A DNA stretch of 64,000 nt, from IMG/VR virus record IMGVR_UViG_3300042465_006864, positions 32,001 to 96,000 of that record; one strand, 5' to 3'. The translations under genes were made by a program, and so were the position numbers. Within the stretch, counting starts at the first letter, position 1. Each line of letters starts with the position of its first letter. Positions 9,118-55,486 of the stretch are shown one piece after another. The notes below the pieces were generated by a model. The model had not been told where the DNA came from. It saw only the letters and a list, made by a program, of their open reading frames with translations, and searched no databases. The DNA is from a virus.

Positions 9118-9591
9118 ATGGAATTCATTAAAGAACACGTAAACAAAGACTGGCTACCAGTCGTCGAAAAATTTCCTAAGATTTTCTTAGAACCATCAGA
9201 GTATGTTATTGATATTTGGGAAAAATACTACAAAGATTTCGTCAAGAAAGAAGATATGGTGAATCTACGCTATGGTTTTGAACATGGTATCGGTTGGAAA
9301 GATATTGTAATCGGCTTTTGTGAAGATTTACAGAAGCTTGCTGAAAAAGCTGCCGCAGAAGGTCACACCTTTCAATACAAAGGATGCATTATTAAAGAAA
9401 AATTTGGCAAATTCACTCCCCAAGGTGATTTGGAAAAAAGTGAGGGTGCATGGGAAATCTATCGCGATGAATATTATGGTATTTGTCGCAAATGGGAAGA
9501 AAAATCCTTGACAGTCTGCGAAGTCTGTGGTAAAGATGGTGAGTTGCGCAGCACAGGATGGTGGAAAACGCGCTGCGATGAACATAACTAA
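9118..9591 (+). CDS. conserved phage protein with C-terminal Zn-ribbon
   Basis: GW...IKEKFG...CEVCG...TRCDEH. Confidence 0.7.
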   Translation: MEFIKEHVNKDWLPVVEKFPKIFLEPSEYVIDIWEKYYKDFVKKEDMVNLRYGFEHGIGWKDIVIGFCEDLQKLAEKAAAEGHTFQYKGCIIKEKFGKFTPQGDLEKSEGAWEIYRDEYYGICRKWEEKSLTVCEVCGKDGELRSTGWWKTRCDEHN

Positions 9592-9595
9592 TAAC

Positions 9596-10024
9596 ATGAG
9601 AGAATTAAAATTCCGCATCTGGGACAGACAAGCAAAAGCATGGGCTGAGAACGATTGCTCGCTGCATTGTTTCAGTAATTGGCAGATTGATCCATTCACT
9701 GGCAAACTGACTGATTTTGTTGGTGCAATTGACGGTGATCGTGAAACGCGCTATAATGCAAATCCTGCTCCCGATTATTATTTTCGTGGCAGTGAGATTG
9801 TGAATGAGCCGAGATATGTTCTTGTTCAATTTACTGGCATGAAAGACAAAAATGGAGTAGAGATTTATGAGGGAGACTTTATTTGTTTTAATAGAACAGA
9901 AGGTCTTTATAGTGATCAAAAGTATCCAATTGTTGCGGCAACTCATCCTTATGTTCAAAACCGTTCTCATTTAGGCGAAGTAATTGGCAACAGCTTTGAA
10001 AACCCTGAACTATTAGAAGCATGA
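9596..10024 (+). CDS. YopX family protein
   Basis: MRELKFRIWD...QFTGMKDKNGVEIYEGD...EVIGNSFENPELL. Confidence 0.9.
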   Translation: MRELKFRIWDRQAKAWAENDCSLHCFSNWQIDPFTGKLTDFVGAIDGDRETRYNANPAPDYYFRGSEIVNEPRYVLVQFTGMKDKNGVEIYEGDFICFNRTEGLYSDQKYPIVAATHPYVQNRSHLGEVIGNSFENPELLEA

Positions 10025-10374
10025 ACAGAGAAATTAAATTTAGAGCTTGGCGCGAAAATAAAATGCATTATAACATTACAACCGCTCATTATGAGCATAA
10101 TGCAATGAGCGGAAGCGGGGGAGATTTGTGGGATTTTGCAGAATGGATGAAATGGAGCAAAGTCATGCAATACACTGGTCTTAAAGACAAGAATGGTGTA
10201 GAGATTTACGAAGGTGATATTCTCAAACACAATCATAAAGTCCAACAGGTTGAATCTAAGTTAGATTGGAACTGCGGATGTTGCGGATTTGTTTATGGAT
10301 ATAACATTGAAGATCCCAATGATATTGAAGTCATCGGCAACATCTTCGAGAACCCTGAACTTTTAAAACATTGA
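10021..10374 (+). CDS. YopX family protein
   Basis: REIKFRAW...QYTGLKDKNGVEIYEGDI...EVIGNIFENPELL. Confidence 0.9.
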   Translation: MNREIKFRAWRENKMHYNITTAHYEHNAMSGSGGDLWDFAEWMKWSKVMQYTGLKDKNGVEIYEGDILKHNHKVQQVESKLDWNCGCCGFVYGYNIEDPNDIEVIGNIFENPELLKH

Positions 10375-10799
10375 GAGAAATAAAATTCAGAATTTGGGAT
10401 AATCTAAAAAAAGAGTGGGTGACTAACAAATACATCTGGAGAATGAAAACCGATGTAAACGGTATCGGTGAAATTCATCCACATACATTCTATTGGAAGC
10501 AACATCCACATGGATTGAATTATCAACAATACACTGGTCTGAAAGACAAAAATGGGAAAGACATTTACGAGGGAGATATTGTAAACATTTTAAAAGAGAA
10601 TAAATGTTATCCTGTGAATTTCGGCAATTGTTATGCTTCTGCTGATGACAACTATTGCGGCACAGAGTGTTTTGGATACCATATAGACGGGCAAATTATG
10701 GGATCGCGTGCAAGAAATTGGGGAAATGGAGCATTAATCAGTGAAAATATGGAAGTCATCGGCAACATCTTCGAGAATAGTGAACTTTTAAAACAATGA
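10371..10799 (+). CDS. YopX family protein
   Basis: REIKFRIWD...QYTGLKDKNGKDIYEGDI...EVIGNIFENSELL (TTG start). Confidence 0.9.
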   Translation: MREIKFRIWDNLKKEWVTNKYIWRMKTDVNGIGEIHPHTFYWKQHPHGLNYQQYTGLKDKNGKDIYEGDIVNILKENKCYPVNFGNCYASADDNYCGTECFGYHIDGQIMGSRARNWGNGALISENMEVIGNIFENSELLKQ

Positions 10800-11595: not shown

Positions 11596-11897
11596 AACAG
11601 CTAACACAATATCGAAAACACGGCAATGATTTTTTATTGATTAAAAGATCAGGCAACGTAGGACTTTTCCAAGAAAAGAAATACAACAGCTATGAAGTAA
11701 TCACCATTCAATCACACAATGGGCGCGAAATCATGGGCAACGTAATTCCTCCAGCAGAATTTGCTCCTAGCGATGAATCTTGGGGATCAAAAGGATGGAC
11801 ATACACAATCGAAGCTGACGCTTTGAAAAAATTTGACGAATTGTGTGAAATTTACTTGACACCTAAGCAAGCAAAACCTACAATACCTGAGACATGA
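11592..11897 (+). CDS. hypothetical protein
   Basis: ATGA overlap; PSDESWGSKGWTY motif. Confidence 0.65.
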   Translation: MKQLTQYRKHGNDFLLIKRSGNVGLFQEKKYNSYEVITIQSHNGREIMGNVIPPAEFAPSDESWGSKGWTYTIEADALKKFDELCEIYLTPKQAKPTIPET

Positions 11898-12580
11898 AAG
11901 AAATTACTACAAACTTATTAATCGCGATGGGTGATACTCATGGAAATTGGGGAGCTTGCATCGAAACTCTACAAGAGTATTATATTCGTGATGCTGTCGT
12001 CCTACACGTAGGAGACGTAGGCATCGGCTTTCTCCCTAAAGAAACACAAGAAGACATTTTAAAATCACTCAACTATGAGCTAGCAGAAAGAAATGTTAGA
12101 ATGTTTTGCATCAGAGGAAATCATGATGACCCACAATACTTTTCGGGCGAGTATGAATACTCCAACATTGTTCTTCTTGCTGATTACTCAAAAATGCTAA
12201 TTAACGGCAAAAAGTTTTTGTTTGTTGGTGGGGCGATTAGCATTGATCGCATCATGCGAACTCCTAATAAGTCGTGGTGGTCAGACGAAGTATTTGTTTT
12301 GGATGAGTCTCGCGCCGAAAAGTGTGACGTTCTTATCTCTCATACCGCTCCAAATTGGATTGGTCCAATCGACAAAATTGGAATTGGTTGGTATACAGAG
12401 CGTGATCCCAATTTGTGGGAAGAGTGTTGCGCAGAAAGATTAGCGATGAATCGTTTGATTGAAATCACAGAACCAGATCAACATTTTTGCGGTCATTTCC
12501 ATCGCAGTCAATCAGCAGTAAACGACAAATGCATTAGTCGTATTTTAAATGAGAATGAAATTTGCGAAATAATTTTGTAA
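11894..12580 (+). CDS. calcineurin-like metallophosphoesterase
   Basis: GDTHG, VGDVG, RGNHD, SHTAP and GHFH motifs. Confidence 0.9.
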   Translation: MKEITTNLLIAMGDTHGNWGACIETLQEYYIRDAVVLHVGDVGIGFLPKETQEDILKSLNYELAERNVRMFCIRGNHDDPQYFSGEYEYSNIVLLADYSKMLINGKKFLFVGGAISIDRIMRTPNKSWWSDEVFVLDESRAEKCDVLISHTAPNWIGPIDKIGIGWYTERDPNLWEECCAERLAMNRLIEITEPDQHFCGHFHRSQSAVNDKCISRILNENEICEIIL

Positions 12581-31425: not shown

Positions 31426-31959
31426 ATGCCTAATTGGACTCACAACAAACTAACCATAACAAACTCCACTCCAAAGCTCGAAGAGTTCCTCAAGGAACAC
31501 GGCTTGTCTTTTGAGGCTATCGTAAAACCAGAGCGTCCTGAGAATTACGGAGATGGTTGTTCTACTATCGCCGCCCAAACTGATGCTTGGGGAACTAAGT
31601 GGGACTTGGATGAAACCGAAGCAAAAGAAACCGCCGCTTCTCTTTTAGAGAATGACGAATGTATTTTCGATACAGCATGGTCGCCACCATCGGAAGCGAT
31701 TCGCGCACTGAGCGAGTTGACTGGTGCGTCTTTTCTTCTTGCTTACTATGAGCCAGGATGTTGGTTCTGGGGAGTGGAAGACATCTCCGAAGGTTTCATC
31801 TACCCCGAGTTAGATAGCAATGAAACACAAGAGCAGCTCCACGAATTTCTTGTCCAATACATGGACTACAGCACCGAAGAGGCTACTGAAGCTGTAGGCT
31901 GGGACGAAGAGGACGAAGAGGAAGAAGAAGAGAAGGAGGAAGAAGAATCCAAGGCGTAA
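31426..31959 (+). CDS. DUF1281/YubB-like ferredoxin-fold protein with acidic tail
   Basis: MPNW..N.L, WGTKWD, FDTAWSPP and YYEPG motifs. Confidence 0.8.
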   Translation: MPNWTHNKLTITNSTPKLEEFLKEHGLSFEAIVKPERPENYGDGCSTIAAQTDAWGTKWDLDETEAKETAASLLENDECIFDTAWSPPSEAIRALSELTGASFLLAYYEPGCWFWGVEDISEGFIYPELDSNETQEQLHEFLVQYMDYSTEEATEAVGWDEEDEEEEEEKEEEESKA

Positions 31960-32019: not shown

Positions 32020-32113
32020 AATTATGCCCCCGATCTAATCAAATAATGCCAAATAAGGAATGAGTGCGCCTAAATAAGCGATAGGGGGAAATGATGGTCA
32101 AAAGTGATATGCA

Positions 32114-32200
32114 TAAACCGTTGAGCGTCAACGAGTTACAGCAAAATGACCCCTACGGGGTCTTCTCCGTGTAAGTCGTTCATTATCAACAACTTATGAC
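32114..32200. repeat. 87-bp dyad element, copy 1 (central loop TAC)
   Basis: TAAACCGTTGAGCGTCAACGAGTTAC...GACCCC-TAC-GGGGTC...GTAAGTCGTTCATTATCAACAACTTATGAC. Confidence 0.95.
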
Positions 32201-32209
32201 GAGCAGTCG

Positions 32210-32296
32210 TAAACCGTTGAGTTTCAACAACTTACGGCGAAACGACCCCGTAGGGGTCGCGTGGGTGTAAGTCGTTGAGTATCAACAACTTACGAC
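32210..32296. repeat. 87-bp dyad element, copy 2 (loop GTA), tandem to copy 1
   Basis: Direct sequence match to the consensus. Confidence 0.95.
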
Positions 32297-32340
32297 GATG
32301 ATTAACCCTACCCCCGCCAAGGGGTAGGGCATACCATGTA

Positions 32341-32601
32341 TCACTTACCGTTAGAAAGGTCTAGCATATCTTCAGCCAATATCGAGATGAGTTCTTCCGT
32401 GTATGCATACGGATCATCGCCGCATGATTGAGCGAGTCTTTCAATCGCATCCCACAGCATAATGCGGGGGCGGTTCTCGTCGTCCTCGTCAACCAAGGCA
32501 CAGCAGAGTTGGTCAGCTGTTAGATCGGGAACTTGTGAAAGAAAGTGTCCCGCAGCGCGGAGATATAGGGCGGCATTTTTCGGGTCGTTAAGGTCTGTCA
32601 T
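32341..32601 (-). CDS. hypothetical cassette protein
   Basis: Own TTGACA...TAACTT promoter 9 nt before the ATG. Confidence 0.7.
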   Translation of the reverse strand: MTDLNDPKNAALYLRAAGHFLSQVPDLTADQLCCALVDEDDENRPRIMLWDAIERLAQSCGDDPYAYTEELISILAEDMLDLSNGK

Positions 32602-32613
32602 AACAGGGAAAAG

Positions 32614-32814
32614 TTAGTTGTTTCGGGGGGAGTTGTCAAGGTTATTTTCGGGAGTGAGATAGATTTTTCCGTAAGATGTTTCTAACGAAAAAGAGCCGTC
32701 TTGTAACTCCACAAAGTTTTCCATGGTATACATGGATTGTCCGATTTCATCCATGATGCGAGCAACAGCCACTTCATCCAGATCATCGCGAGGAATATCA
32801 ATAGTAATTCTCAT
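32614..32814 (-). CDS. hypothetical cassette protein
   Basis: Own near-identical promoter. Confidence 0.65.
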   Translation of the reverse strand: MRITIDIPRDDLDEVAVARIMDEIGQSMYTMENFVELQDGSFSLETSYGKIYLTPENNLDNSPRNN

Positions 32815-32913
32815 AGAAAGAAAAGTTAGTTGATTTGGGGGGAGTTGTCAAGTATTATGCGCTCAATGCTAGAATAAAAAGCAGGAACGCAAGAAACAAA
32901 ATTTGTCCTATGG

Positions 32914-33612
32914 TCATGCAGGTTCAATCACAAAGCCCGAAGAATCTTTTTTCGCTTTGCCTTTTTCGACAAGCCCGACAATGACGTTTTGAGGGTCAAG
33001 AAAGCGCAGGTCACTTTCGTCACCGCTAACGACACGATACCCTTTCCAATTCTCAGGAAGCGAGCCACGGAAAACCACGGCAACATTTCCACCACTGGCA
33101 AGAATAGCGTCAACCAATTTTTCGTTAGACTCAGAACGGGAGAACGTCAACTGATAGTTCGATGGAAATTCACCAGTCAAGAAAGCACTCATTCGTTGCG
33201 CTGACTTGGTATAGTCGTAGAAGGTCACTTGAGGAAACAAATCAAAAACAGTTTTGCCGTTCAGTTTAATTTTTTCCCAAGGAAGATCGCTTGTAAGGTT
33301 CAAGCGGAAACAAGGAACAAGATTTTTCTTTTGCGCCGATTTGATTGCGGCAGCTATCTCTTTCACAAGTTGCGCCATGAACAAAGCCTTATCTTGAAAG
33401 AAGAATTTTGTTTTGGCGATACGGGCAGCTTGAACAGTTGCGAAGATTCCATGTCCCGAAGTGTCAAGACAAGCAGCCTCACAGCCAACGCTTGAATGCT
33501 GGCAGGTGTTGTAGCCCGATTTTGTGCTAGGCGCGAGGTGAACGCCGAACGTCTGGAAGCCTTGAGCTTCCCCTTTTTTGATTTTGCTATTTGAAGTAGT
33601 TAGTAATTTCAT
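32914..33612 (-). CDS. Gp88-like phage protein, paralog 1
   Basis: MKLLTTSNSKIKK...LAP..C..C...CL...RLNLTSDL...FYDYTK...LTFSRSE...GDESDLRFLD. Confidence 0.75.
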   Translation of the reverse strand: MKLLTTSNSKIKKGEAQGFQTFGVHLAPSTKSGYNTCQHSSVGCEAACLDTSGHGIFATVQAARIAKTKFFFQDKALFMAQLVKEIAAAIKSAQKKNLVPCFRLNLTSDLPWEKIKLNGKTVFDLFPQVTFYDYTKSAQRMSAFLTGEFPSNYQLTFSRSESNEKLVDAILASGGNVAVVFRGSLPENWKGYRVVSGDESDLRFLDPQNVIVGLVEKGKAKKDSSGFVIEPA

Positions 33613-33652
33613 GCGGAGAAAAGTTAGTTGTTTCGGGGGAGTTGTCAAGAAT

Positions 33653-34012
33653 TTACCACCAAGAATCGTAAAAAACTTTCTTGCCGTCCTTGATAGCTTG
33701 GCGAGCCGTTGCGATAAACTCCAGGGTTTTTTGCTTGTAGTGGTCATCATCGCGAGAATCAGCACCAAAAAAGAAACCTTGTGTTTCTGGCAAACTGCTA
33801 CCAAGAATGTCTTGCTCCAGTTTGTCAAGATTTTCCATATTGAGTTCCAGCGGAATGCAGTTGAAGGAGCCATCTTCATCATGCTTCTTGGGGCAACCTT
33901 GTTTTTCCCACAGGTTTTCCATCCAGCCATGCAGCGCGTTATGCTTGCGCCAGTAGGCGATTTCTTCTTTGTTTTTTCCTTTTGTAGTGTATGCGAATTG
34001 ATCGAGTCCCAT
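33653..34012 (-). CDS. conserved phage protein
   Basis: MGLDQ...YWRKHNALHGWM...GFFFG...FYDSWW family signature. Confidence 0.75.
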   Translation of the reverse strand: MGLDQFAYTTKGKNKEEIAYWRKHNALHGWMENLWEKQGCPKKHDEDGSFNCIPLELNMENLDKLEQDILGSSLPETQGFFFGADSRDDDHYKQKTLEFIATARQAIKDGKKVFYDSWW

Positions 34013-34145
34013 AGTATTGATTAGTTAGTTGTTAGTGATTTCGTGACGGGCAAAGAATATCATTTTGCGGCAGAGTGTCAACATTTATTTGATTAAAAAA
34101 TAAAAAAAAATAAACCTTGACAATCTCAGGCAATCGCTCAAGTCG

Positions 34146-34232
34146 TAAACCGTTGAGCGTCAACGACTTACGCCAAAACGACCCCGAAGGGGTCGCGTCG
34201 ATGTAACTCGTTGAGTGTCAACGACTTATGAC
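34146..34232. repeat. 87-bp dyad element, copy 3 (loop GAA)
   Basis: Direct sequence match. Confidence 0.95.
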
Positions 34233-34271
34233 AACCCCGCTTGCGCGGGGGTTGTCAAGTCTTTTTTTCGC

Positions 34272-35072
34272 TTAGTCGCGGAAGTCCGTTCCGTCGAGTT
34301 CGGGCGCGTCCTCGCATCCCTTGGTGACAATCTCCTGCACCTCGATTACAGGGGCGTGACTCGCCACACGGTCAAAGATGCTTTGAGTGGTCATCGTGCG
34401 GAAAGGCAGCTTGCTAAGGTCGCCCCCTTTGAGGTTCTCAGTGATGGAATTGTAAAGACTCCAGAGAGTGCGTCCCTTGAACTCTTCATGGCGCGGATTG
34501 CGGAACTCTTCAATCGCGGCGTAAATGTCGCGAGCGGGGAACGCTTTGGAATCAACAAGCGTCACCATCAGATCAGCCGCTTGCGCGTCACTGATTTCCG
34601 TGGTTTTATAGCGATCAATGCGCAAGCCCATATCGTTCCAATGAGACACAACGCGCCCCACGGCATCGCCAAGCACGCGAGGCAAATCGGTTAGAATGTT
34701 GAGGGTGTGGCGGCGAGCGAGCTTCACATCAGAAGCGAAGCAAAGATTCTCGCAAACCATCATGCGATTGCCGATGCAGACAGCGGCAGCAAAAGCCTTG
34801 TCGTGAGAGTTGCGCAAGCCAAGCACCACTTGGCGATCATCGCCAGAAATGCCCTTGCCAGTGAGTGCAAAGCCGCCGAAGTAGCGCAAGCCGCCACGGT
34901 GCAAAGCGTGTTCCTCTTCCAAGACAGTAAGACCAGCGTTCTCGATTGCCTTACGGGTGAGTGTGACAAGCAGGTCGTGAGGAATCGGGGTGTGTGACTC
35001 AGTAGCAGGTGGGGTTTCCACGCCGATGAGTTGCTCGAAGTTGACTTTGTTTTTTGCGATGATGAGTGCCAT
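34272..35072 (-). CDS. DUF932 family protein
   Basis: HTPIPH...LGLRNSHDK...RMMVCENLCF...RRHT...LWSLYNSITE. Confidence 0.8.
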   Translation of the reverse strand: MALIIAKNKVNFEQLIGVETPPATESHTPIPHDLLVTLTRKAIENAGLTVLEEEHALHRGGLRYFGGFALTGKGISGDDRQVVLGLRNSHDKAFAAAVCIGNRMMVCENLCFASDVKLARRHTLNILTDLPRVLGDAVGRVVSHWNDMGLRIDRYKTTEISDAQAADLMVTLVDSKAFPARDIYAAIEEFRNPRHEEFKGRTLWSLYNSITENLKGGDLSKLPFRTMTTQSIFDRVASHAPVIEVQEIVTKGCEDAPELDGTDFRD

Positions 35073-35267
35073 AATGGTAGTAGTAGTTAGTTAGTTTTGA
35101 AGTGTGCCAGTCATTGGCGACGAGGAAAGTGTAGCATTTCGGACGGAATTGTCAATATGTTTTTTGTATTTTTTCACAATTATTTTTGTGCGATTGCGCG
35201 AAAAAAGTTCTTGACACTCTCTAACAGAAAACCTCTAACAGATTTTTACTTACAGCAGTAATCTTCG

Positions 35268-35354
35268 TAAACCGTTAAGCGTCAACGACTTACAGCAAAA
35301 CGACCCCTTCGGGGTCGCATCGGCGTAACTCGTTGATACTCAACAACTTATGAC
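35268..35354. repeat. 87-bp dyad element, copy 4 (loop TTC)
   Basis: Direct sequence match. Confidence 0.95.
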
Positions 35355-35690
35355 GCTTAGAAAATCCCCCACCAGAAGTAAGCTGCAATCAGTCGGGGCA
35401 TGAAGCCCCTTGTCCTTCTGGCGAGAGAAAAATTATTTCTTTTGTTCTGCTATCTGCTTCTTGCCATCGCGCCTAACAAGTTTATTTTGTGCGCGTTTTC
35501 TATCGCGTAGATGTTTCCACCATTCGACAGTTCTAACAGAACCTTTTGATTTACTTGATGAAGCCACGACATTCTTTTTTGTTAGATTCTTTTTTGCGAT
35601 CCTTGAGGGCAAAGCAAGGGGGAGGCATAGGATGACGGCTTAGGTTGCGCATGTCAAGAGAATTTTGCGCGAGTTGTTTTTTGTGGCGTT

Positions 35691-36044
35691 TCATGCTATA
35701 GCTTGGTAGATGATTGGAATGTGAGTGCGAGCGGGTATTCCCATTTCTTTACACACGGCAGCGAAGTCTTTTCCGTGGAAACTACGGCGACCATTCTTAG
35801 TAAGAAGAAAACGATTGCCGTTGCGCTTCCACTGAATGTGATGAGCAATCTCATGCTTCAACACTTCGTCGAAAGTTTTGAAAGAGCAGAGAATGCGTTT
35901 GCTTAGTTTGATTTTACCTTCAGCAACATAAGCAAGACCAAGATGACGTTCAGAGTTCATCCATTGAATTTTGAGATGAGACATGCTCCATTGCTTTAGA
36001 GTCATGCGGATGTATTGTTCGATTTCGGAAGTGGTGGCAAACAT
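35691..36044 (-). CDS. SprT-like zinc metalloprotease
   Basis: LGLA...IKLS...VLKHEIAHH...HGKDF. Confidence 0.8.
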   Translation of the reverse strand: MFATTSEIEQYIRMTLKQWSMSHLKIQWMNSERHLGLAYVAEGKIKLSKRILCSFKTFDEVLKHEIAHHIQWKRNGNRFLLTKNGRRSFHGKDFAAVCKEMGIPARTHIPIIYQAIA

Positions 36045-36056
36045 GGCGGCGAAAGT

Positions 36057-36269
36057 TTAAGGTTTTTGGGTGGTGGTGTCAATCTTTTTTTTTAATTGTT
36101 TTAAATTAAATTCAGTTCTTATTTTGCAAGCAGTAAGAGCAAAAGAGGGAATCAAAAAACCCATAGAACAAAACATAATCAAACCATCCAAAACAGTGCA
36201 GAGACCCTGCAAAGCGAAAAGTGGATATTCTAACAAATGAACTCTTTTTTTAACAAAGTGAATTTTCAT
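36057..36269 (-). CDS. small membrane protein
   Basis: Hydrophobic ORF with its own TTGACA promoter. Confidence 0.6.
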   Translation of the reverse strand: MKIHFVKKRVHLLEYPLFALQGLCTVLDGLIMFCSMGFLIPSFALTACKIRTEFNLKQLKKKIDTTTQKP

Positions 36270-36317
36270 GGCGGCAATAGATTAGTGTTTTTTGGGGAAG
36301 TGTCAACATATTTTTAA

Positions 36318-36674
36318 TCAAAAAGCAGCAAAAACTTGTCTGCCATGCAATAGCACTTCTTCTGCGCGAAAGATGTTAGAACCTTGGCACTGAAACTGAT
36401 CGACCTCATACGGGTTATATCTAACAGAAAGAAAAAACTTATTAGATTGGATGCCAGAAACTAACGTGCCAATGATGAATGCGTGAACATTCTTCTTTTT
36501 CTGTTTAATCACACGCTGACGACCAGCTTCCGATACTTTGAATTGCGCGTTTCTAACGCAAGCGTGTTCCAAGTGACAAACGACTTTCCAGCGTCCGTCA
36601 ACTTTTGTCTGGACAGACAACTTTTTCTTGTGGAGGTTAAAGTAGATTCTAACGATTTGATTGAGTGGTAACAT
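36318..36674 (-). CDS. conserved phage protein
   Basis: VRIYFNLHKK...FKVSEAGRQRV...KKNVHAF...YNPY family signature. Confidence 0.75.
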   Translation of the reverse strand: MLPLNQIVRIYFNLHKKKLSVQTKVDGRWKVVCHLEHACVRNAQFKVSEAGRQRVIKQKKKNVHAFIIGTLVSGIQSNKFFLSVRYNPYEVDQFQCQGSNIFRAEEVLLHGRQVFAAF

Positions 36675-36725
36675 GGCAAGAGAAAAATACACTTTCTGCG
36701 GCTATTTGTCAACAACTTTTTGCGA

Positions 36726-36780
36726 ATAAATAGCAAATAAATAGCAAATAAATAGCAAATAAATAACCTTCAAATAACCT
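36726..36780. repeat. short tandem repeat (AATAAATAGCA)n
   Basis: Three to four tandem units followed by AAATAACCT twice. Confidence 0.7.
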
Positions 36781-36825
36781 TAGGGGTAGGAGAGGGGGAA
36801 TCTAACAGATTTTAAGCAGGATGCG

Positions 36826-36912
36826 TAAACTGTTGAGTATCAACGACTTACGGCAAAACGACCCCTACGGGGTCGCGGCGGTGTAACTCGTTCATTATCA
36901 ACGACTTACGAC
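36826..36912. repeat. 87-bp dyad element, copy 5 (loop TAC)
   Basis: Direct sequence match. Confidence 0.95.
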
Positions 36913-37013
36913 GATTGTCTTCGCGCTGCAATGTCAAGACTTTTTTTTGACAATTTTGGGGAGCGGTTAAACCATAAACCGCTCCCCGTTTTGCCAATGC
37001 CACCAGAAAATTG

Positions 37014-37244
37014 TTAGACTTCGAAGCCTTCTTCTTCTAACAGTTCCACAACTGCATCTTGCGCGATGTTTTGCAATTCGGAAAGGTGTAAGCCGTCCCC
37101 CCATCGCTCGATGAGTTCTTCCATTTCATCGAGAGCGTTCATCACACAGGGCAAGTCGGGCAAGTCAGCGAGAGACAAGCTGCCCGACATTCTGAGGCAG
37201 ATGTTATTCATTATCGTTATGCAGCGTTTGCGATTGTTAGTCAT
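37014..37244 (-). CDS. hypothetical cassette protein
   Basis: Own promoter; stop codon lies within GTCTAAC. Confidence 0.7.
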   Translation of the reverse strand: MTNNRKRCITIMNNICLRMSGSLSLADLPDLPCVMNALDEMEELIERWGDGLHLSELQNIAQDAVVELLEEEGFEV

Positions 37245-37284
37245 GGCGGGGATATGTTAGTTGTTTTGGGGGGATTGTCAAGAT

Positions 37285-37470
37285 TTATTTTCTGTTTTTA
37301 AGTATTTCTTCCAATTTGTTTTTATCGTAAAAGAAGCTATCTTCATTCAATTTACCGAAGAAAAAAGATTTTGGCTCATCAGTGTCACTGATCTCATAGT
37401 CAAGAGAAGACAAGATTTCATAAATGCTTGTGAGTAGGTGAACGGGAACTTCAATAGTTTGATTTGACAT
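37285..37470 (-). CDS. hypothetical cassette protein
   Basis: TACTCT-TTCCCCGCC-ATG promoter module. Confidence 0.65.
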   Translation of the reverse strand: MSNQTIEVPVHLLTSIYEILSSLDYEISDTDEPKSFFFGKLNEDSFFYDKNKLEEILKNRK

Positions 37471-37590
37471 GGCGGGGAAAGAGTAGCAGAAAAAACCAAT
37501 CAGCGCAAGTATTTTCTTTGATTATTTTTGAAAAAAAAGTTTGTCATAAGTGCAAAAAAACTTGACAAGTGTCACTAGTTTATCAAGTCA

Positions 37591-37677
37591 TAAACCGTTG
37601 AGCGTCAACAACTTACGACAAAACGACCCCGAAGGGGTCGCGTCGATGTAACTCGTTGAGCGTCAACAACTTACGAC
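37591..37677. repeat. 87-bp dyad element, copy 6 (loop GAA)
   Basis: Direct sequence match. Confidence 0.95.
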
Positions 37678-37729
37678 GATTGCGATTGAGTGTTAAGCCA
37701 GCCCCGAAGGGCTGGCTGTGTATTTTTCG

Positions 37730-37879
37730 TTAGACGAACTCCAGAGTGCCTAACGGAACTTCATCCTCGCGCCCATCCTCAAAGCGGATGAGTGCGCGAT
37801 TTCCAACTGGAGTATTTACAACTTCGACAAGCTCAACTTCTGAGCCACAGTAAATGACGATTTCGATTTCTTCGATCAT
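37730..37879 (-). CDS. small hypothetical cassette protein (49 aa)
   Basis: Start MIEEIE after TATTCT-TTCCCCGCC; stop within GTCTAAC. Confidence 0.65.
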   Translation of the reverse strand: MIEEIEIVIYCGSEVELVEVVNTPVGNRALIRFEDGREDEVPLGTLEFV

Positions 37880-37984
37880 GGCGGGGAAAGAATAGAATGT
37901 TTTTGCGGTTAAGTCAACAAGTTTTTTTGTTTTTTTTTGCATTTTTTTTGAGGGGACGGCTTTCGCCGCCCCCTCTGCCATGCA

Positions 37985-38281
37985 TCAAGCCACCACGCTT
38001 GAAAATTGTTTGTCGATCTTGCCACACTTGAAAAGCAAAACCTTTTCAGGTTTGAAGCAAAAGTAACCGTTACGGTTGCGGTCAACGGCGAACATATAAC
38101 CGTCTTGACGGAGCGCATCAGTAGCAGGGGAACCAGTTCCCTTGACTAGACCAGTGAAACGATCTTTTGCGTTAATCGTGCGGATTGTGCCATCTTTCTT
38201 GACAAAAGTGAGGGAAAAGAATTTTCCTTTTGTTGCTTCGATGAGGGCTGTGATTTCTTCTTTTGTTGGTGCGTTTTGCAT
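37985..38281 (-). CDS. SH3-fold/WYL-like small phage protein
   Basis: GKFFSLTFVKKDGTIRTIN motif; start MQNAP. Confidence 0.65.
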   Translation of the reverse strand: MQNAPTKEEITALIEATKGKFFSLTFVKKDGTIRTINAKDRFTGLVKGTGSPATDALRQDGYMFAVDRNRNGYFCFKPEKVLLFKCGKIDKQFSSVVA

Positions 38282-38342
38282 GATGTTTATTTGGTTAGTA
38301 GTAGGCGGGGAAAGTGTAAGCGGTTTTTTGAAGTTTGTCAAC

Positions 38343-38528
38343 TTATTTTTTGCTGTTTTGAATAAAAGTTTGCAAACGTGCAAGAGTGTAGCAAGTTGCG
38401 CCGAAAACAAGGAAACAAATACAATCAAACAATTCGTTTTTTCCGCCATAAATGGCGAAAGCGCAAAGGCTGAAAGTAGGCGAGAGGGTGACAATAGCGG
38501 AGGCAATGATGGTAAATGCATGTTTCAT
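38343..38528 (-). CDS. small membrane protein
   Basis: Two hydrophobic segments; own promoter. Confidence 0.6.
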   Translation of the reverse strand: MKHAFTIIASAIVTLSPTFSLCAFAIYGGKNELFDCICFLVFGATCYTLARLQTFIQNSKK

Positions 38529-38698
38529 TTTTTTTTGGTGTTGTTAGTAGGCGGGGAAAGAATAGTCTTTTTTTTGGCATCCGTCAACATTTTTTTTGTT
38601 TTATTTTCGAAAAAAAGTTTTGTCATAATGTGTTTTTTTTCTTGACAAGTTTCTAACAGAAAATACTTTTTTGACTTGTTAGGCATCATGCATCTGCA

Positions 38699-38785
38699 TA
38701 AACCGTTGAGCGTCAACGACTTACGCCAAAACGACCCCGAAGGGGTCGCGTCGATGTAAGTTGTTGAGTATCAACGACTTATGAC
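38699..38785. repeat. 87-bp dyad element, copy 7 (loop GAA)
   Basis: Direct sequence match. Confidence 0.95.
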
Positions 38786-38957
38786 GATTGTCATCGCGCT
38801 ATGTTGTCAAGATTTTTTTTTCACTTTTTTTCTGTTAGAGAGCGCCCCCCTTTTTTCTGTTAGAGAGGCGCTGAGTCTAACGATTTTTATTTTCGGTCCG
38901 CTATCAGGAACAGCAGCACCGCAACAATCAAGAGAAAAATCATTTTTTTGTTAGGTG

Positions 38958-39653
38958 TTAGTGTTCGATCACGAAACCGCTTTCGTCTTTTTTCGCCTTG
39001 CCTTTCTCGACAAGTCCAACAATTTTTCCCGCGCCATCAAGAAAGCGTAAATCCGTTTCATCGCCATTTACAACGTCCACGCCTAACCATTTCGAGGGTA
39101 GCGACTTTCTGAAAACCATTGCGACATTGCCGCCCGATTTCAAAATTGATTCTGCGATTGCGCCGTTTGTTTCAGACTTGGAAAAAGTCAAATGATAATT
39201 TTGCGGCATTTCACCAGCAAGAAAAGCGGTCATGCGTTCGGGGGATTTTGTGTAATCATAGAATTGCACACTAGGAAACAAATCAAAAACACTTTGCCCG
39301 TTGAGTTTGATTTTCTCCCATGGTAAATCACTGGTAAGATTGAGGCGGAAAACAGCAGTGAGATTTTGCTTTTCGGCAGATTTAACGGCGGCAGTAATTT
39401 CTTTGATTAACTGCGACAAGAAAACAGCTTTATCCTTAAAGAATAAACGAGTTTTTTCGATGCGTGAATTTTGCACGTTGGAGAATGCGCCCATGCCAGC
39501 AGTATTGAGACAGGCAGCGGCACAACCTGCGCTTGCATCTTTGCAGACGTTGAAGCCAGAGAGAGAGGCGGGAGCGAGGTGAATTCCGAACGTGCGGAAA
39601 CCGATTTTTTCACCTTTGCGGATTTTAGCATTTGCTGTGGTAAGTAATTTCAT
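38958..39653 (-). CDS. Gp88-like phage protein, paralog 2
   Basis: Colinear with and highly similar to 32914..33612. Confidence 0.75.
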   Translation of the reverse strand: MKLLTTANAKIRKGEKIGFRTFGIHLAPASLSGFNVCKDASAGCAAACLNTAGMGAFSNVQNSRIEKTRLFFKDKAVFLSQLIKEITAAVKSAEKQNLTAVFRLNLTSDLPWEKIKLNGQSVFDLFPSVQFYDYTKSPERMTAFLAGEMPQNYHLTFSKSETNGAIAESILKSGGNVAMVFRKSLPSKWLGVDVVNGDETDLRFLDGAGKIVGLVEKGKAKKDESGFVIEH

Positions 39654-39704
39654 GACAGGGAAAAGTTAGCAGATTGAGAAAAAAAGTCAACAGTTTTTTT
39701 TGTT

Positions 39705-39881
39705 TTATTTCAGATTTTGCACAGTGTGAGAAATTCTGATGAACCAAGCGCAAGAAGCCAAGAAGCCAATGATTGCGCAAGCGTGTGATTCTGTGGTGGT
39801 GGATTGTGCGCCCCAAACAATGAACACGATGCACATAATGAGTGAGATGATCGAAGAGGCAAGGATGATGAAGTATTTCAT
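39705..39881 (-). CDS. small membrane protein (58 aa)
   Basis: Manual translation MKYFIILASSIISLIMCIVFIVWG..., after TTCCCCGTC. Confidence 0.6.
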   Translation of the reverse strand: MKYFIILASSIISLIMCIVFIVWGAQSTTTESHACAIIGFLASCAWFIRISHTVQNLK

Positions 39882-40031
39882 GACGGGGAAAAAGTAGCAT
39901 TTTATAAGCTAACGCGCAAGTATTTTTTTCTATTTTTTATTTATTTTTTTTTGCGTCATAGTGCATTTTTTTGTTGACAAACTCCTAACAGAAAACGCTT
40001 TTTTTAGTTGTTAGAAGCCTAACAGATTTCG

Positions 40032-40118
40032 TAAACCGTTGAGCGTCAACGAGTTACACCAAAATGACCCCTTCGGGGTCGCCTCGACGTAAGTCGTTGA
40101 GTATCAACAACTTATGAC
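40032..40118. repeat. 87-bp dyad element, copy 8 (loop TTC)
   Basis: Direct sequence match. Confidence 0.95.
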
Positions 40119-40143
40119 GATTCGAGGCGCAGCGTAAGAACTG

Positions 40144-40395
40144 TTAGAAGTCGCCGCAGCAGCCATCCATGCCCCACTCGCTGATCTCATGGCGATCTTC
40201 GTAGGCGGCATCGAGCCAATAGTCTTCGTTGCCTTCGTCACTGTAATCCGTCCAATGCCCATCGAGGTGGGAGTCATCAAGAAAGATTTCTTCTGGAGGG
40301 TCAGGGAGTTGATCGGCAGCGTCTGCGAAAGCTTCGCAAGCGGCAACATATTCTTCGTATTCGGCGGGGCAGTTGATGAAAGGGTGGTTAAACAT
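40144..40395 (-). CDS. very acidic small protein (possible DNA mimic)
   Basis: 83 aa, D/E-rich with almost no K/R; TATAAT-TTCCCCGTC-ATG upstream. Confidence 0.7.
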   Translation of the reverse strand: MFNHPFINCPAEYEEYVAACEAFADAADQLPDPPEEIFLDDSHLDGHWTDYSDEGNEDYWLDAAYEDRHEISEWGMDGCCGDF

Positions 40396-40535
40396 GACGG
40401 GGAAATTATACTCCGAAACACATAGAAACGCAACAACTTTTTTCTATTTTATGCAAAAAAAAAGTTTTGTCATAAAGCGTTTTTTTTCTTGACAAACATC
40501 TAACGAAAAAAGGTTTTTAACACGCTGCGTCTTCG

Positions 40536-40622
40536 TAAACCGTTGAGCGTCAACGACTTACGCCAAAACGACCCCGTAGGGGTCGCGTCGATGTAACTCG
40601 TTCATTATCAACGACTTATGAC
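40536..40622. repeat. 87-bp dyad element, copy 9 (loop GTA)
   Basis: Direct sequence match. Confidence 0.95.
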
Positions 40623-40693
40623 GATTGTATTTTTTTTTATTTTTTTCTTGACAAGGGAGCCAGCCTTGCGACTGACTCCCGATCTGTTAGATG

Positions 40694-40945
40694 TTAGACT
40701 ACGAGGTCAATTCCAGAGATGTGAAGATTGCGATATTTACTTTCGCCGCCATCATCAACGTCTAACGCTTTTACAGTGACGTATCGCTTGCCGTTCGCGG
40801 CAAATGCTACTTTGTCCACCGCTTCAATCTTGAGAACGCGAACGCCATCAGCTTTGACTTTCGAGTTTTCAGCAAAGTAGCGCACGGTTTTGTTGACGAG
40901 GGCGGAAACGACTTGTTCGGTAGGTGTATTGTAATCGAAGAACAT
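40694..40945 (-). CDS. hypothetical cassette protein
   Basis: Own promoter; stop within GTCTAAC. Confidence 0.7.
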   Translation of the reverse strand: MFFDYNTPTEQVVSALVNKTVRYFAENSKVKADGVRVLKIEAVDKVAFAANGKRYVTVKALDVDDGGESKYRNLHISGIDLVV

Positions 40946-40979
40946 AACGAGGAAAAGATAGAAGATTTTTGCGGTATTG

Positions 40980-41177
40980 TCAAGATTCTTTTATGAAAAC
41001 TGAGATTATCCAAGCGGAACAGCAAGCAGTGAAAAGAGAAAGCGATCCCAAAAGATAAGTTGTCATATTTTGAGGGCAGCACACAAGAAACGAAAGACTT
41101 GCAAGCGGAGATAAAAAGCCGCTAGTCACAAGACAAATAGCGATAGTTGATTTGATATTTTCGATGGTTGATTTCAT
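40980..41177 (-). CDS. small membrane protein
   Basis: Two hydrophobic segments; own promoter. Confidence 0.6.
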   Translation of the reverse strand: MKSTIENIKSTIAICLVTSGFLSPLASLSFLVCCPQNMTTYLLGSLSLFTACCSAWIISVFIKES

Positions 41178-41243
41178 AGTAGTTAGTTGGTTGCGAGAGA
41201 AAGATAGAAGATTTTTGCGAGATTGTCAATAAGTTTTTTTGAT

Positions 41244-41555
41244 TTATTTTTCGACAATCTCAAAAACTGTTGTGATGTATTCGCGCACAGTGCAGAATGT
41301 TTTCGTGGTGATGTTTTCCCAAGGGATGATTTGTTCAATCACTGCGCCATAGTTGCAGTATTGAGCAAGACCTTCAGTCCTTGTAACACCCATGATTTCA
41401 TCACCTACTGCGTAGGTTTTGATTTGACCATAACCATAGTCAATCGTCAATTCAACTTTTGCAAAGTATTTATCCTCATATTTTTCTGTTGCTTTGTTAG
41501 CAGTATTGAGGGCGATTGCTTTATATTGTGGCTTGAGGTTAGGTTGAGCGTTCAT
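41244..41555 (-). CDS. hypothetical cassette protein
   Basis: Start MNAQP after a TACACT-TTCCCCGTC module. Confidence 0.6.
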   Translation of the reverse strand: MNAQPNLKPQYKAIALNTANKATEKYEDKYFAKVELTIDYGYGQIKTYAVGDEIMGVTRTEGLAQYCNYGAVIEQIIPWENITTKTFCTVREYITTVFEIVEK

Positions 41556-41718
41556 GGTTAGTATTGGTTGACGGGGAAAGTGTAACGCATAACGCATGAA
41601 AGCGCAAGAACTTTTTTATCTTTTTTTCTTTTTTTATTTTGCGGCATAATGCATTTTTTTCTTGACAAAACTCTAACAGAAAATGTTTTTTCGTGCATAG
41701 TATAGCACAGCGTATGCG

Positions 41719-41805
41719 TAAACCGTTGAGCGTCAACGACTTACGCCAAAACGACCCCGAAGGGGTCGCGTCGATGTAAGTCGTTGAGTATCAACAACTT
41801 ATGAC
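41719..41805. repeat. 87-bp dyad element, copy 10 (loop GAA)
   Basis: Direct sequence match. Confidence 0.95.
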
Positions 41806-41890
41806 GATTGTTATTGTGCGATGCTGTCAAGTTTTTTTTCGTTAGACTAACAGTTTTTTTTCTGTTAGCCTAACGGTTTTTTTCGTTAGA

Positions 41891-42073
41891 CTAACGGATT
41901 TGAATGAAGTGCAGTGACTGATAGCCAACCCAACCTTTTTCAAAGATGGCAAAGTTTTTTTCATCCCAATGCGAAAAAATTCCGTAGTTTGTTTTTGTTC
42001 CTTTTGTTAGAAGGCTAACAAGTTTTGCGTGAACGGCGGCGAAGTAAGCGGGAGTAAGTGAAGAAGTTTTCAT
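41891..42073 (-). CDS. hypothetical protein
   Basis: TACACT-TTCCCCGTC-ATG. Confidence 0.65.
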   Translation of the reverse strand: MKTSSLTPAYFAAVHAKLVSLLTKGTKTNYGIFSHWDEKNFAIFEKGWVGYQSLHFIQIR

Positions 42074-42102
42074 GACGGGGAAAGTGTAACGGTTTTTTCG
42101 GA

Positions 42103-42279
42103 TTAACGCAAGCTTTTTTTTGTTTTATTTATATTTTTTATTTCGACCATTCCATTTACTTCGTGAGCTATTTTTTCAGCCTTAGCAAGCAATTCTGAGA
42201 ATGTTGAACCGATATTGTTAGGAGCGAAACAATTAACGAATGCGCCTTCTGAGTTTCTGATGATAATGAGCTTTTTCAT
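42103..42279 (-). CDS. hypothetical protein (58 aa)
   Basis: Manual translation MKKLIIIRNSEGAF..., after TACACT-TTCCCCGTC. Confidence 0.6.
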   Translation of the reverse strand: MKKLIIIRNSEGAFVNCFAPNNIGSTFSELLAKAEKIAHEVNGMVEIKNINKTKKSLR

Positions 42280-42356
42280 GACGGGGAAAGTGTAGCGGTT
42301 TTTTGCGATGAAGTCAACAATTTTCTTTTGTTTTTTTTGGGGGGGAGTATTGGAAC

Positions 42357-42563
42357 TTATGCCAGTTCCTCGGCTTCGATGATGTCATCATCGTGCAGGT
42401 GCTTGGGGTGAAAAGGGCAAGCACCAAGAAAACCAACATAAGATTTTTCATTGGCAGTAAACTCGACTTCCCAGTCTGCCCAATTATCATCCACACGATC
42501 AGCGATGGAAACGAAAGACAAGTCGGAAACGGTGGATGCGGAGAATTGAAGTAACTTATTCAT
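42357..42563 (-). CDS. hypothetical acidic protein
   Basis: TATACT-TTCCCCGTC-ATG. Confidence 0.65.
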   Translation of the reverse strand: MNKLLQFSASTVSDLSFVSIADRVDDNWADWEVEFTANEKSYVGFLGACPFHPKHLHDDDIIEAEELA

Positions 42564-54256: not shown

Positions 54257-55399
54257 ATGAAAATTACCCTTAAAAGAACTCCTGAACAAATCGAGCTTGT
54301 GAAAGCTATGGCTTCGAAAAATCGCGCTATCGCGACCGAAGCTCAAGTTGCACTCGCTGAGTTCATTGGTCCTGTGTTGGCTGAAGTGATCAACAACGCT
54401 CCTACGTTGAGCAACTTGTTCACCACTCTGCAATTCAATGCCGATGACAATCCTAGCATTCCGCTTGACCTCTATTATGATGTTAACGCTGAAGACTATA
54501 TCGAAGTTTACAGCCAAAGCGCTGCTGGCGGTCTTCCTCAGAACCAAGTACTTCCTACTGTTTCTGAAATGAAGATCCACACCTACACTCTTGACTCTGC
54601 ATTGAGCTTTGATAAGCGCTATGCTGCTAAGAGCCGCTTGGATGTAATCAGCAAAACCTTCACTCGCCTCGCTCAAGAAATTCTTCTGAAGCAAGAGAAG
54701 ACTTCGGCAAACCTATTGCTTGGCGCTCTCGCCAACGCTCAAACCAACGGCAAGAAACACGTTCAACGTGCCAACACTAACGGTCGTTTCCTCTTGGCTG
54801 ACTTGAACGAACTGTTCACTCTTGCTAAGCGTATCAACACCTCTTGGCTTGGTGGCACTCCAGATGCTCGTCAAGGTCGTGGTCTTACAGACATCATCGT
54901 GTCTCCTGAAGTTGTTCAAGAGCTTCGCGCTATGGCTTACAATCCTATCAATACCAAAGGTTCACCTGCTGGTGGCACTCCTACTGATGGTATCGCTGCT
55001 CCTGATGACATGAGAACTGCTATCTATAACTCCGCAGGTATTCCTGAGTTTTATGGTGTAGCCATCATGGAAATCAATGAGCTTGGTCGTGGTCAACGCT
55101 TCAACAGCATCTTCGACACCGTTGCTGGTTCGACTGCCTTCACTAACGCTGCTGGAGGCAACTCCGCTGCATTTGATGGCGCTGCTGAAGAGATCATCAT
55201 TGGTCTTGATCGTGGTCGTGAGTCTCTGATCCGTGCTGTTGCTGTGGATTCGGAAAATGGTTCGGAGTTCTCTCTGACTGCCGATGACCAATACAGCGTT
55301 CGTCAGAAGAAAATCGGCTACTTCGGCTCGATGGAAGAAGGTCGCATGGTGCTTGACACCCGCGCTCTGGTTGGCAAGATCGTTTCGGGTCTCGCCTAA
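54257..55399 (+). CDS. major capsid protein
   Basis: 380 aa, position in the head module, biased codon usage, strong hairpins downstream. Confidence 0.8.
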   Translation: MKITLKRTPEQIELVKAMASKNRAIATEAQVALAEFIGPVLAEVINNAPTLSNLFTTLQFNADDNPSIPLDLYYDVNAEDYIEVYSQSAAGGLPQNQVLPTVSEMKIHTYTLDSALSFDKRYAAKSRLDVISKTFTRLAQEILLKQEKTSANLLLGALANAQTNGKKHVQRANTNGRFLLADLNELFTLAKRINTSWLGGTPDARQGRGLTDIIVSPEVVQELRAMAYNPINTKGSPAGGTPTDGIAAPDDMRTAIYNSAGIPEFYGVAIMEINELGRGQRFNSIFDTVAGSTAFTNAAGGNSAAFDGAAEEIIIGLDRGRESLIRAVAVDSENGSEFSLTADDQYSVRQKKIGYFGSMEEGRMVLDTRALVGKIVSGLA

Positions 55400-55406
55400 T
55401 AGATTC

Positions 55407-55486
55407 AGGCTGGGGGGTTCGCCTCCCAGCTTTCAAAAAACCCACCACGCCTCTCAACGATGCGAACCAGGGTGGGTATTTTTTTG
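55407..55486 (+). terminator. hairpins/terminator after the MCP gene
   Basis: GCTGGGGGG-TTCG-CCTCCCAGC-TTT, then ACCCACC...GGTGGGT with a T run. Confidence 0.6.

Follow-up and report, generated by a model that had tools for sequence, protein, structure and literature searches.

A three-palindrome intergenic repeat with two fixed loop orientations in the accessory gene block of an uncultured lake phage

The locus and its genome

The stretch analysed here, called the window in what follows, comprises 64,000 nucleotides (bases 32001-96000) of IMG/VR record IMGVR_UViG_3300042465_006864, a viral genome of 133,831 bp with direct terminal repeats. A block of about 19 small leftward genes (32341-42563, minus strand), among them two GP88-like genes, a DUF932 gene, an SprT-like gene and an L5 gp82-like gene, is punctuated in this window by ten copies of an intergenic element. 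Each copy has a GC-rich hairpin at its centre, with a three-nucleotide loop that is found in two reverse-complement orientations. These orientations are fixed, locus-specific alleles and not an ongoing flip-flop; they track subfamilies of the element and need only one to four events.

The gene content of the window is that of a large tailed phage (rIIA/rIIB, terminase, tape-measure protein, PhoH and seven tRNAs), and the rest of the genome encodes a Pol III alpha subunit, DnaB, a DnaG-like primase, a RecA-like protein, a PD-(D/E)XK nuclease, a ribonucleotide reductase and ThyX. It is the genome of an uncultured, siphovirus-like lake phage of 134 kb, and the metagenome runs in which the region was found (24 runs) come from lake water. 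Neither the region nor the one element compared had a DNA match among cultured phages, and none of these is a close relative, the terminase being at most 23% and the Pol III alpha at most 32% identical to anything there. Pfam scans covered 167 open reading frames (ORFs), 99 in the window and 68 elsewhere in the genome (there only ORFs of at least 80 amino acids). They identified an ERCC4-type nuclease, the PD-(D/E)XK nuclease and a RuvB-like ATPase, which are ordinary phage recombination genes, and gave no HUH/Rep nickase, protelomerase, integrase, transposase or RAYT-like gene, nor a giant virion RNA polymerase (N4-like) or a hairpin/telomere resolvase. The Rfam scan at gathering score found seven tRNAs and an abiF RNA in total, with no family matching at 32-42 kb of the window.

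A search with GACCCCNNNGGGGTC (GACCCC-NNN-GGGGTC) returned ten exact matches in the window, all within 32148-41767, against a mean of 0.00 in 100 dinucleotide-preserving shuffles. The complete 133,831-bp record held no further copies, either by this pattern or by a covariance model at E<=1, which pointed to ten places, each matched on both strands. The sites occupy 64.1-73.8 kb of the 133.8-kb record, so they are internal and do not lie at the genome ends. All copies are assigned to the minus strand, and in the following each is given with its centre, whose first position is the start of the pattern match, and with its loop on the plus strand. Copy 1 (32100-32211; centre 32148-32162; TAC, which is GUA on the gene strand) and copy 2 (32196-32307; centre 32244-32258; GTA) overlap by one arm, 96 nt apart, and this tandem pair ends the gene block at a convergent junction with a plus-strand gene (31426-31959). 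Then come copy 3 (34132-34243; centre 34180-34194; GAA), copy 4 (35254-35365; centre 35302-35316; TTC), copy 5 (36812-36923; centre 36860-36874; TAC) and copy 6 (37577-37688; centre 37625-37639; GAA). The remaining four are copy 7 (38685-38796; centre 38733-38747; GAA), copy 8 (40018-40129; centre 40066-40080; TTC), copy 9 (40522-40633; centre 40570-40584; GTA) and copy 10 (41705-41816; centre 41753-41767; GAA). All ten are strictly intergenic, placed after the end of a minus-strand gene and ahead of the next promoter-like site. Tandem elements with a common arm at the same 96-nt spacing were also seen in a related contig (L015, 2817-3023), as a triple with loops TAC, TAC and GTA.

Anatomy and fold of the repeat

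A repeat of about 110-130 nt (repeat family D1) surrounds each GC hairpin, which stands in the middle between two arm palindromes. Read on the gene strand, the order is an arm palindrome (GTAAGTYGTTGA, three nucleotides, TCAACGAsTTAC), a spacer of 7-8 nt, the hairpin CGACCCC-NNN-GGGGUCG, the stretch UUUUGG and the second arm palindrome. The arm is a 12-3-12 palindrome, GTAAsTCGTTGA-NNN-TCAACGAsTTAC, and the central stem has 7 bp and a loop of 3 nt. All 48 aligned elements have TTAC and GTAA unchanged beside the spacer. In the searchable literature the arm and centre motifs turned up only in three unrelated papers.

An earlier note on this DNA, made from its letters alone, had listed the ten loops, and all were reproduced exactly by the pattern search. 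It had also stated that the asymmetric flanks keep one orientation, and indeed an A-run (AAAAC, AAAAT or GAAAC) stands to the left of the hairpin in every copy. Its details on the arms were equally correct: the right-arm spacer of copy 4 is TAC (GTTGA-TAC-TCAAC), where copies 2, 7, 8 and 10 have GTA, and the variant half-site GTAACTC occurs on the right arm of copies 3, 4, 5, 6 and 9 and as GAGTTAC on the left arm of copies 1 and 8.

To examine the fold, 48 distinct elements from the window and related contigs were aligned and two models were compared with 500 shuffles. With three local hairpins 88.3% of the cells are paired and the covariation score is 0.134 vs 0.116, neither value being reached in any of the 500 shuffles. 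With one long hairpin, in which the left arm pairs with the right arm, 84.4% are paired, a value that 330 of the 500 shuffles also reach. Since this long pairing comes without covariation, the long complementarity is a by-product of four similar half-arms, and covariation supports three local hairpins rather than one long cruciform arm. The extruded cruciform proposed in the earlier note is weakened by this, as far as a long cruciform is concerned. A long RNA hairpin of the gene strand, as a substrate of the RNase III type, was rejected on the same lack of covariation.

The minus strand folds more stably as a whole element in all ten window copies. When the local hairpins are taken separately, this strand is the more stable in nine of ten left arms, nine of ten right arms and, for their sum, ten of ten copies, because A.C mismatches on the plus strand are G.U pairs on the minus strand. 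The folding model gives the same energy to the GNA mini-hairpin on both strands. The claim that the element works independently of strand appears doubtful, the hairpins being more stable on the gene strand throughout the window.

A strict terminator scan (at least 5 T in 8) flagged the central hairpin with its U-run as terminator-like on the minus strand in copies 1, 4, 6 and 8. The six unflagged copies have 3-4 U and read GUUUUGG, or GUUUCGC in copy 2. Additional GC hairpins are present between the gene stops and elements 3, 6 and 9 (34245-34270, 37696-37717 and 40660-40690), with GCAA or UUCG tetraloops on the gene strand; the one beside element 6 has UUCG. The T-runs beside the extra hairpins of elements 3 and 6 follow on the strand opposite to the genes (the plus strand for element 6). 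A small RNA gene on either strand was considered and is not supported: hexamers similar to TTGACA stand beside the element on both strands, but there is no consistent -10 at the right spacing.

Loop sequences among relatives

Relatives were gathered by two scans of viral contigs together with the covariance model. The close relatives contributed 82 copies with 29 distinct sequences, and their loops are only GAA (11), TTC (7), TAC (6) and GTA (5), that is, 16 GNA to 13 TNC. Over a wider set of 54 distinct hairpin-type elements from 19 contigs we counted GAA/TTC 27 times, GTA/TAC 23 times, GCA/TGC twice and other loops twice. In 52 of the 54, one of the two strands therefore carries a GNA triloop with a C-G closing pair, N being A, T or C. 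The sample is not made of random trinucleotides, so the rule put forward in the earlier note, C-GNA-G on one strand or the other, holds. Reading TNC plus G as a UNCG tetraloop would require a slipped stem with a bulge and the loss of three pairs, and RNAfold always chose the triloop.

Some flanking positions go with the orientation. The right flank GCGTCGAT is found in all 11 distinct GAA elements, and the flank ends in C in 5 of 6 distinct TTC elements. The pair beside TTAC/GTAA is G/T in 15 of 15 informative GNA elements, while among the informative TNC elements it is A/C in 6 and G/T in 4. A metagenome scan with an arms-only pattern gave chance matches, with the arm context in none of the matches listed, and the metagenome unitigs of four runs break at the repeats.

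Fixed orientations and rare inversions

Orthologous sites could be matched in related contigs by both of their unique flanks, and 45 of 45 carry the same loop at a flank identity of 84-100%; in none of them were both orientations found at one site. One additional orthologous comparison, a tandem triple, was kept outside the 45. A tree was built from the 29 distinct elements with the loop columns left out. On it 4 changes of orientation are needed, compared with a mean of 9.8 after shuffling (0 of 500 shuffles were as low), and the well-supported branches force only one. The three loop columns change 4, 5 and 4 times on this tree, which has a total length of 3.5 changes per column, and none of the twelve stem columns changes at all. 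At loop positions 1 and 3 the only combinations are G..A and T..C, and neither position is ever altered singly. As the two always switch jointly, the loop changes by inversion and not by point mutation.

Template switching between the arms of inverted repeats is reported to invert spacers or loops and to homogenise the arms (PMC8604942; PMC8794818), and it is a plausible cause of the few loop inversions seen here. The local inversion or template switching suggested by the earlier note agrees well with the joint switch of positions 1 and 3, which is what a spacer inversion gives. Its comparison with the flip/flop of hairpin-processing replicons did not survive: the sites are internal, 45 of 45 loci keep their loop, one to four events are enough and the 167 ORFs contain no nickase or resolvase gene.

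The conservation of the GNA rule in both directions could also mean that the element acts as DNA. It might be an either-strand signal, a mini-hairpin of single-stranded DNA or a cruciform serving for ssi-like priming or as a target of nicking, recombination or RNA polymerase. A d(GNA) loop closed by C-G is described as a very stable DNA mini-hairpin, less so as RNA, that is used at the G4 origin, at RSF1010 ssiA (CCGAAGG) and in N4 promoters (PMC13037366; PMC3201870), so that the exceptional stability invoked by the earlier note, N4 promoters included, is documented (PMC13037366). The near-universal C-GNA-G, the loop positions 1 and 3 that never change singly, the pair beside TTAC/GTAA that co-varies with loop orientation and a genome encoding DnaB, a DnaG-like primase and Pol III alpha would all suit such a signal. 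We nevertheless regard it as very improbable. The two loop orientations are interspersed along the array and each locus is fixed for one of them, the sites are limited to one 10-kb block of accessory genes, and covariation is absent from the long-arm pairing required for a cruciform. A GC-rich centre is, besides, unfavourable for cruciform extrusion, relatives have poorly folding sequence in its place, and the 167 ORFs yielded neither a giant virion RNA polymerase nor an HUH nickase or a resolvase. A broader proposal joins a strand-agnostic C-GNA-G mini-hairpin with two protein-recognised palindromes; acting on single-stranded or extruded DNA in priming, nicking or recombination, it would organise the exchangeable early-gene cassettes of a widespread lake-phage group into an integron-like array. 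This too seems quite unlikely to us.

Conserved arms and an exchangeable centre

In more distant relatives 56 places were compared in an alignment read by eye. The centre is a hairpin made of a C-run, a loop and a G-run in 32 of them, a G-run directly followed by a C-run in 16 and neither in 8. Across diverged phages it is the arms that are conserved in this element family, and the centre varies. In a sister lineage (L183 (G002), L021 and L019:6802) the centre consists of G4-7 directly followed by C4-6, for example ten consecutive G/C letters. Whether such blocks are G-rich-first or C-rich-first depends on the strand chosen by the model, the orientation of the whole element being ambiguous in these contigs.

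Conserved arms around a replaceable centre are what one might expect of a site recognised as duplex DNA. The arms would then be operator-like palindromes for a dimeric phage protein (a repressor, a roadblock or an organiser), with the centre setting spacing or stiffness. The invariant TTAC/GTAA beside the spacer and the sharing of an arm by tandem copies at 96-bp spacing speak in the same sense, and GAA and TTC are, as duplex, one and the same site reversed, which would explain both orientations. Pfam and PHROG scans, on the other hand, give no candidate binding protein in or beside the array, and the window copies retain deviations of the wobble type on their gene strand. The covariation of the arm halves within a copy is also unexpected from protein binding alone, with the reservation that template switching could homogenise arms too. 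On balance we consider a duplex-DNA site fairly unlikely.

Promoters and gene cassettes

Most genes of the block carry their own repeated TTGACA-N16-18-TAnnnT site (repeat families D2-D5, D7 and D8). The motif TTGnnn-N16-18-TAnnnT stands 8-9 nt before the ATG in 10 of the 19 array genes, and others match by eye. In total 25 promoter-like sites were found against a shuffled mean of 15.0, and 18 of the 25 are on the minus strand; TTGACA-17-TAAACT at 36054-36082 (minus strand), 9 nt ahead of an ATG, may serve as an example. The distance from element to promoter is 60-200 nt, and some array genes have no element.

The relatives are distinguished by entire cassettes, whose breakpoints fall at the elements or the promoter repeats. 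The breakpoints were taken from BLAST segment ends and hence are approximate. A gene deletion that joins 36082 to 36310, bounded by the promoter repeat family, is found in relatives and in one lake metagenome run, other cassette breaks of relatives fall at 36056/36267 and 38788/38886, and one contig (L008) has an extra 829-bp cassette with an element where the window has a single element.

Cassette indels at the copies would also be left by a selfish or neutral palindromic repeat of the MITE or REP kind, spread within and between lake phages, homogenised by recombination and template switching and without a function for the phage. The many near-identical copies, with tandem overlaps and in several phage lineages, the subfamilies of the element and the arm variants that occur on either arm fit this idea. 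They have to be set against the strict position of the copies relative to gene ends and promoters, their constant orientation relative to transcription (10 of 10) and the stem columns, which have not changed at all on the tree described above; no transposase or RAYT-like gene was found among the 167 ORFs either. A repeat of no use to the phage appears improbable to us.

Several other observations concern the same block. In at least 10 of the 19 array genes TAnnnT is followed by 8-9 nt (mostly TTCCCCGYC) and then by the ATG, and at such a short distance the mRNAs would have little or no leader. Words resembling Shine-Dalgarno sequences precede none of the 19 array genes and only 3 of the 77 other genes of the window, and the host probably does not rely on Shine-Dalgarno pairing. 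An 81-nt repeat (family D6, four copies) is placed between elements 7 to 10 and the promoter of the next gene (38591-38671, 39923-40003, 40438-40518 and 41611-41691) and contains TTGACA on the plus strand and a CATAAT-like word. CTGTTAG or CTAACAG recurs between gene ends and elements (41820-41890, 38800-38870 and other gaps), often as a small palindrome GTTAG-N-CTAAC with flanking A- or T-runs. Two paralogous genes of the GP88 family (mycobacteriophage L5 gp88-like; 32914-33930 and 38958-39653) and the L5 gp82-like gene (36318-36692) hint at a kinship with the early regions of actinophages, and the promoter spacers (CTTGACA, then a C-rich stretch) have what we take to be a resemblance to the operator/stoperator word of L5.

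Elsewhere in the window there are three tandem YopX-family genes (9527-10799), two calcineurin-like phosphoesterase genes (7771-8451 and 11894-12580) and the abiF RNA (55441-55477, plus strand; 42.1 bits at a gathering score of 37), directly after a 380-aa gene (54257-55399). A scan of the genomes of 185,579 species returned 32 stretches, where a rough arithmetic estimate puts about 17 down to chance. By eye only two of them are family-like, one on a 2.6-kb contig binned into a Flavobacteriaceae metagenome-assembled genome (L217) and one on an 8.9-kb contig binned into an Opitutales metagenome-assembled genome (L220). These may be mis-binned phage contigs or weak hints of a host, too weak for naming one.

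A possible insulator and recombination linker

In T4-type phages, elements known as PeSLs combine a sigma-70-like promoter, an AT-rich stretch and a stem-loop with G/C tracts; they are reported to terminate transcription and, as recombination points in hyperplastic regions, to mediate the shuffling of cassettes (PMC2839356; PMC4122927). Clusters of hairpins have likewise been reported as terminators (PMC8355165). The ingredients of PeSLs, differences between relatives by whole cassettes and a cluster of hairpins are found together in this array, and we therefore read the element as a PeSL-like terminator or insulator that is at the same time a recombination linker, its loop having been inverted a few times by template switching. 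We give this reading a probability of roughly 0.4.

The repeats separate cassettes of early or accessory genes that have their own putative promoters. Under this reading the element, when transcribed on the gene (minus) strand, would fold into a cluster of three hairpins, with UUUUG after the central one, and this cluster might stop or insulate transcription between cassettes. The conserved sequence of the repeat could be a portable linker for homologous recombination, leading to the gain and loss of cassettes. The few inversions of the 3-nt spacer would come from template switching between perfect arms of 6-7 bp, and they would be tolerated since the function ignores the direction of the loop.

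A number of observations weigh against this insulator and linker. Over the 48 aligned elements local pairing is about equal on the two strands (88.3% vs 87.3%), so the strand argument rests on the lineage of the window itself. The U-run is just 4 long, and in distant relatives it is absent or inconsistent with the side of the neighbouring ORFs (in one of them, G004, it lies on the ORF strand in 4 of 8 elements). Another GC hairpin already stands between the gene stop and the element in 6 of 10 copies, as read from the flanks. Termination does not explain the poorly folding G-run/C-run centres (16 of 56) and the places without a GC centre (8 of 56) in distant relatives, nor why the sequence of the arms is conserved across phages with diverged proteins. 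For RNA loops under selection on one strand, a 36-66-fold excess over their complements is normal (PMC8794818), and the 16 GNA to 13 TNC among distinct elements are unlike such a bias. Finally, zero point changes at loop positions 1 or 3 hint at a constraint that an insulator does not predict.

The repeat represents an undescribed, well-defined intergenic family of uncultured freshwater phages, with conserved arms, an exchangeable centre and a place at the sites of accessory gene gain and loss. For the inversion of a spacer within a perfect inverted repeat, its loop provides an unusually clean natural case. If the element is indeed a PeSL-like insulator and linker, the modular shuffling of regulatory cassettes would extend beyond T4-type phages, and if the GNA rule instead reflects a DNA-level signal that can be read on either strand, phages would have a control element of a new type.

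Comparison with known systems

In parvoviruses and poxviruses the flip/flop hairpins form the ends of the genome, and hairpin-primed replication lets the two forms occur together at one end. The element shares with them an asymmetric segment within a palindrome and two reverse-complement forms. It differs in that its sites lie inside the genome, every one of them shows a single form (45 of 45) and the two forms are set apart by only 3 nt plus scattered single positions. With lengths of about 35-150 bp (about 100 bp in ERIC, Correia and attC), the REP/BIME, ERIC, Correia and attC repeats are numerous imperfect palindromes situated at the ends of genes; folding occurs in mRNA or in single-stranded DNA, and the repeats are associated with rearrangement. 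Many intergenic palindromic copies at gene ends are common to them and to our element. We have rejected an integron attC (no integrase among the 167 ORFs; the core sites RYYYAAC ... GTTRRRY misfit by eye) and a REP/RAYT system (neither a RAYT nor a transposase among the same ORFs).

The G4 origin, ssiA and the N4 promoters have, like the element, a C-G closing pair and a GNA triloop on one strand. Those signals use one defined strand and belong to origins or promoters, whereas here the GNA strand alternates among neighbouring copies, accessory genes are what the elements separate, and the 167 ORFs include no N4-like polymerase. The spacer inversions attributed to template switching (PMC8794818; PMC8604942) offer a close parallel, a loop replaced by its reverse complement with the stems remaining perfect; they are a mutational process and not a function, and they leave the missing single changes at positions 1 and 3 unexplained. 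Intrinsic terminators and hairpin clusters resemble the element in having a GC-rich 7-bp hairpin and, at terminator-like length in 4 of 10 copies, a U-run on the coding strand past the stops, with three hairpins in 110 nt. It departs from them in the shortness of the U-run, which is often missing in relatives, and in arms whose sequence is conserved, unlike that of ordinary terminators.

The PeSLs of T4-type phages have no sequence relation to the element and belong to a different kind of phage, the present one being a siphovirus-like lake phage, so that the likeness is one of functional class and not of homology. The stem-loop part is here a 110-bp unit of three palindromes, with arms conserved across lineages and at 60-200 nt from the promoter; elements are absent from some genes, and terminator and promoter activity are predicted from the sequence. 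Like the PeSLs (PMC2839356; PMC4122927), the element recurs as an intergenic module within a hyperplastic block of small accessory genes. The window repeats include a sigma-70-like promoter with an A/T-rich upstream stretch, a stable stem-loop with G/C tracts recurs in the intergenic spaces of the array, and the indels and replacements among close relatives are bounded by the repeats.

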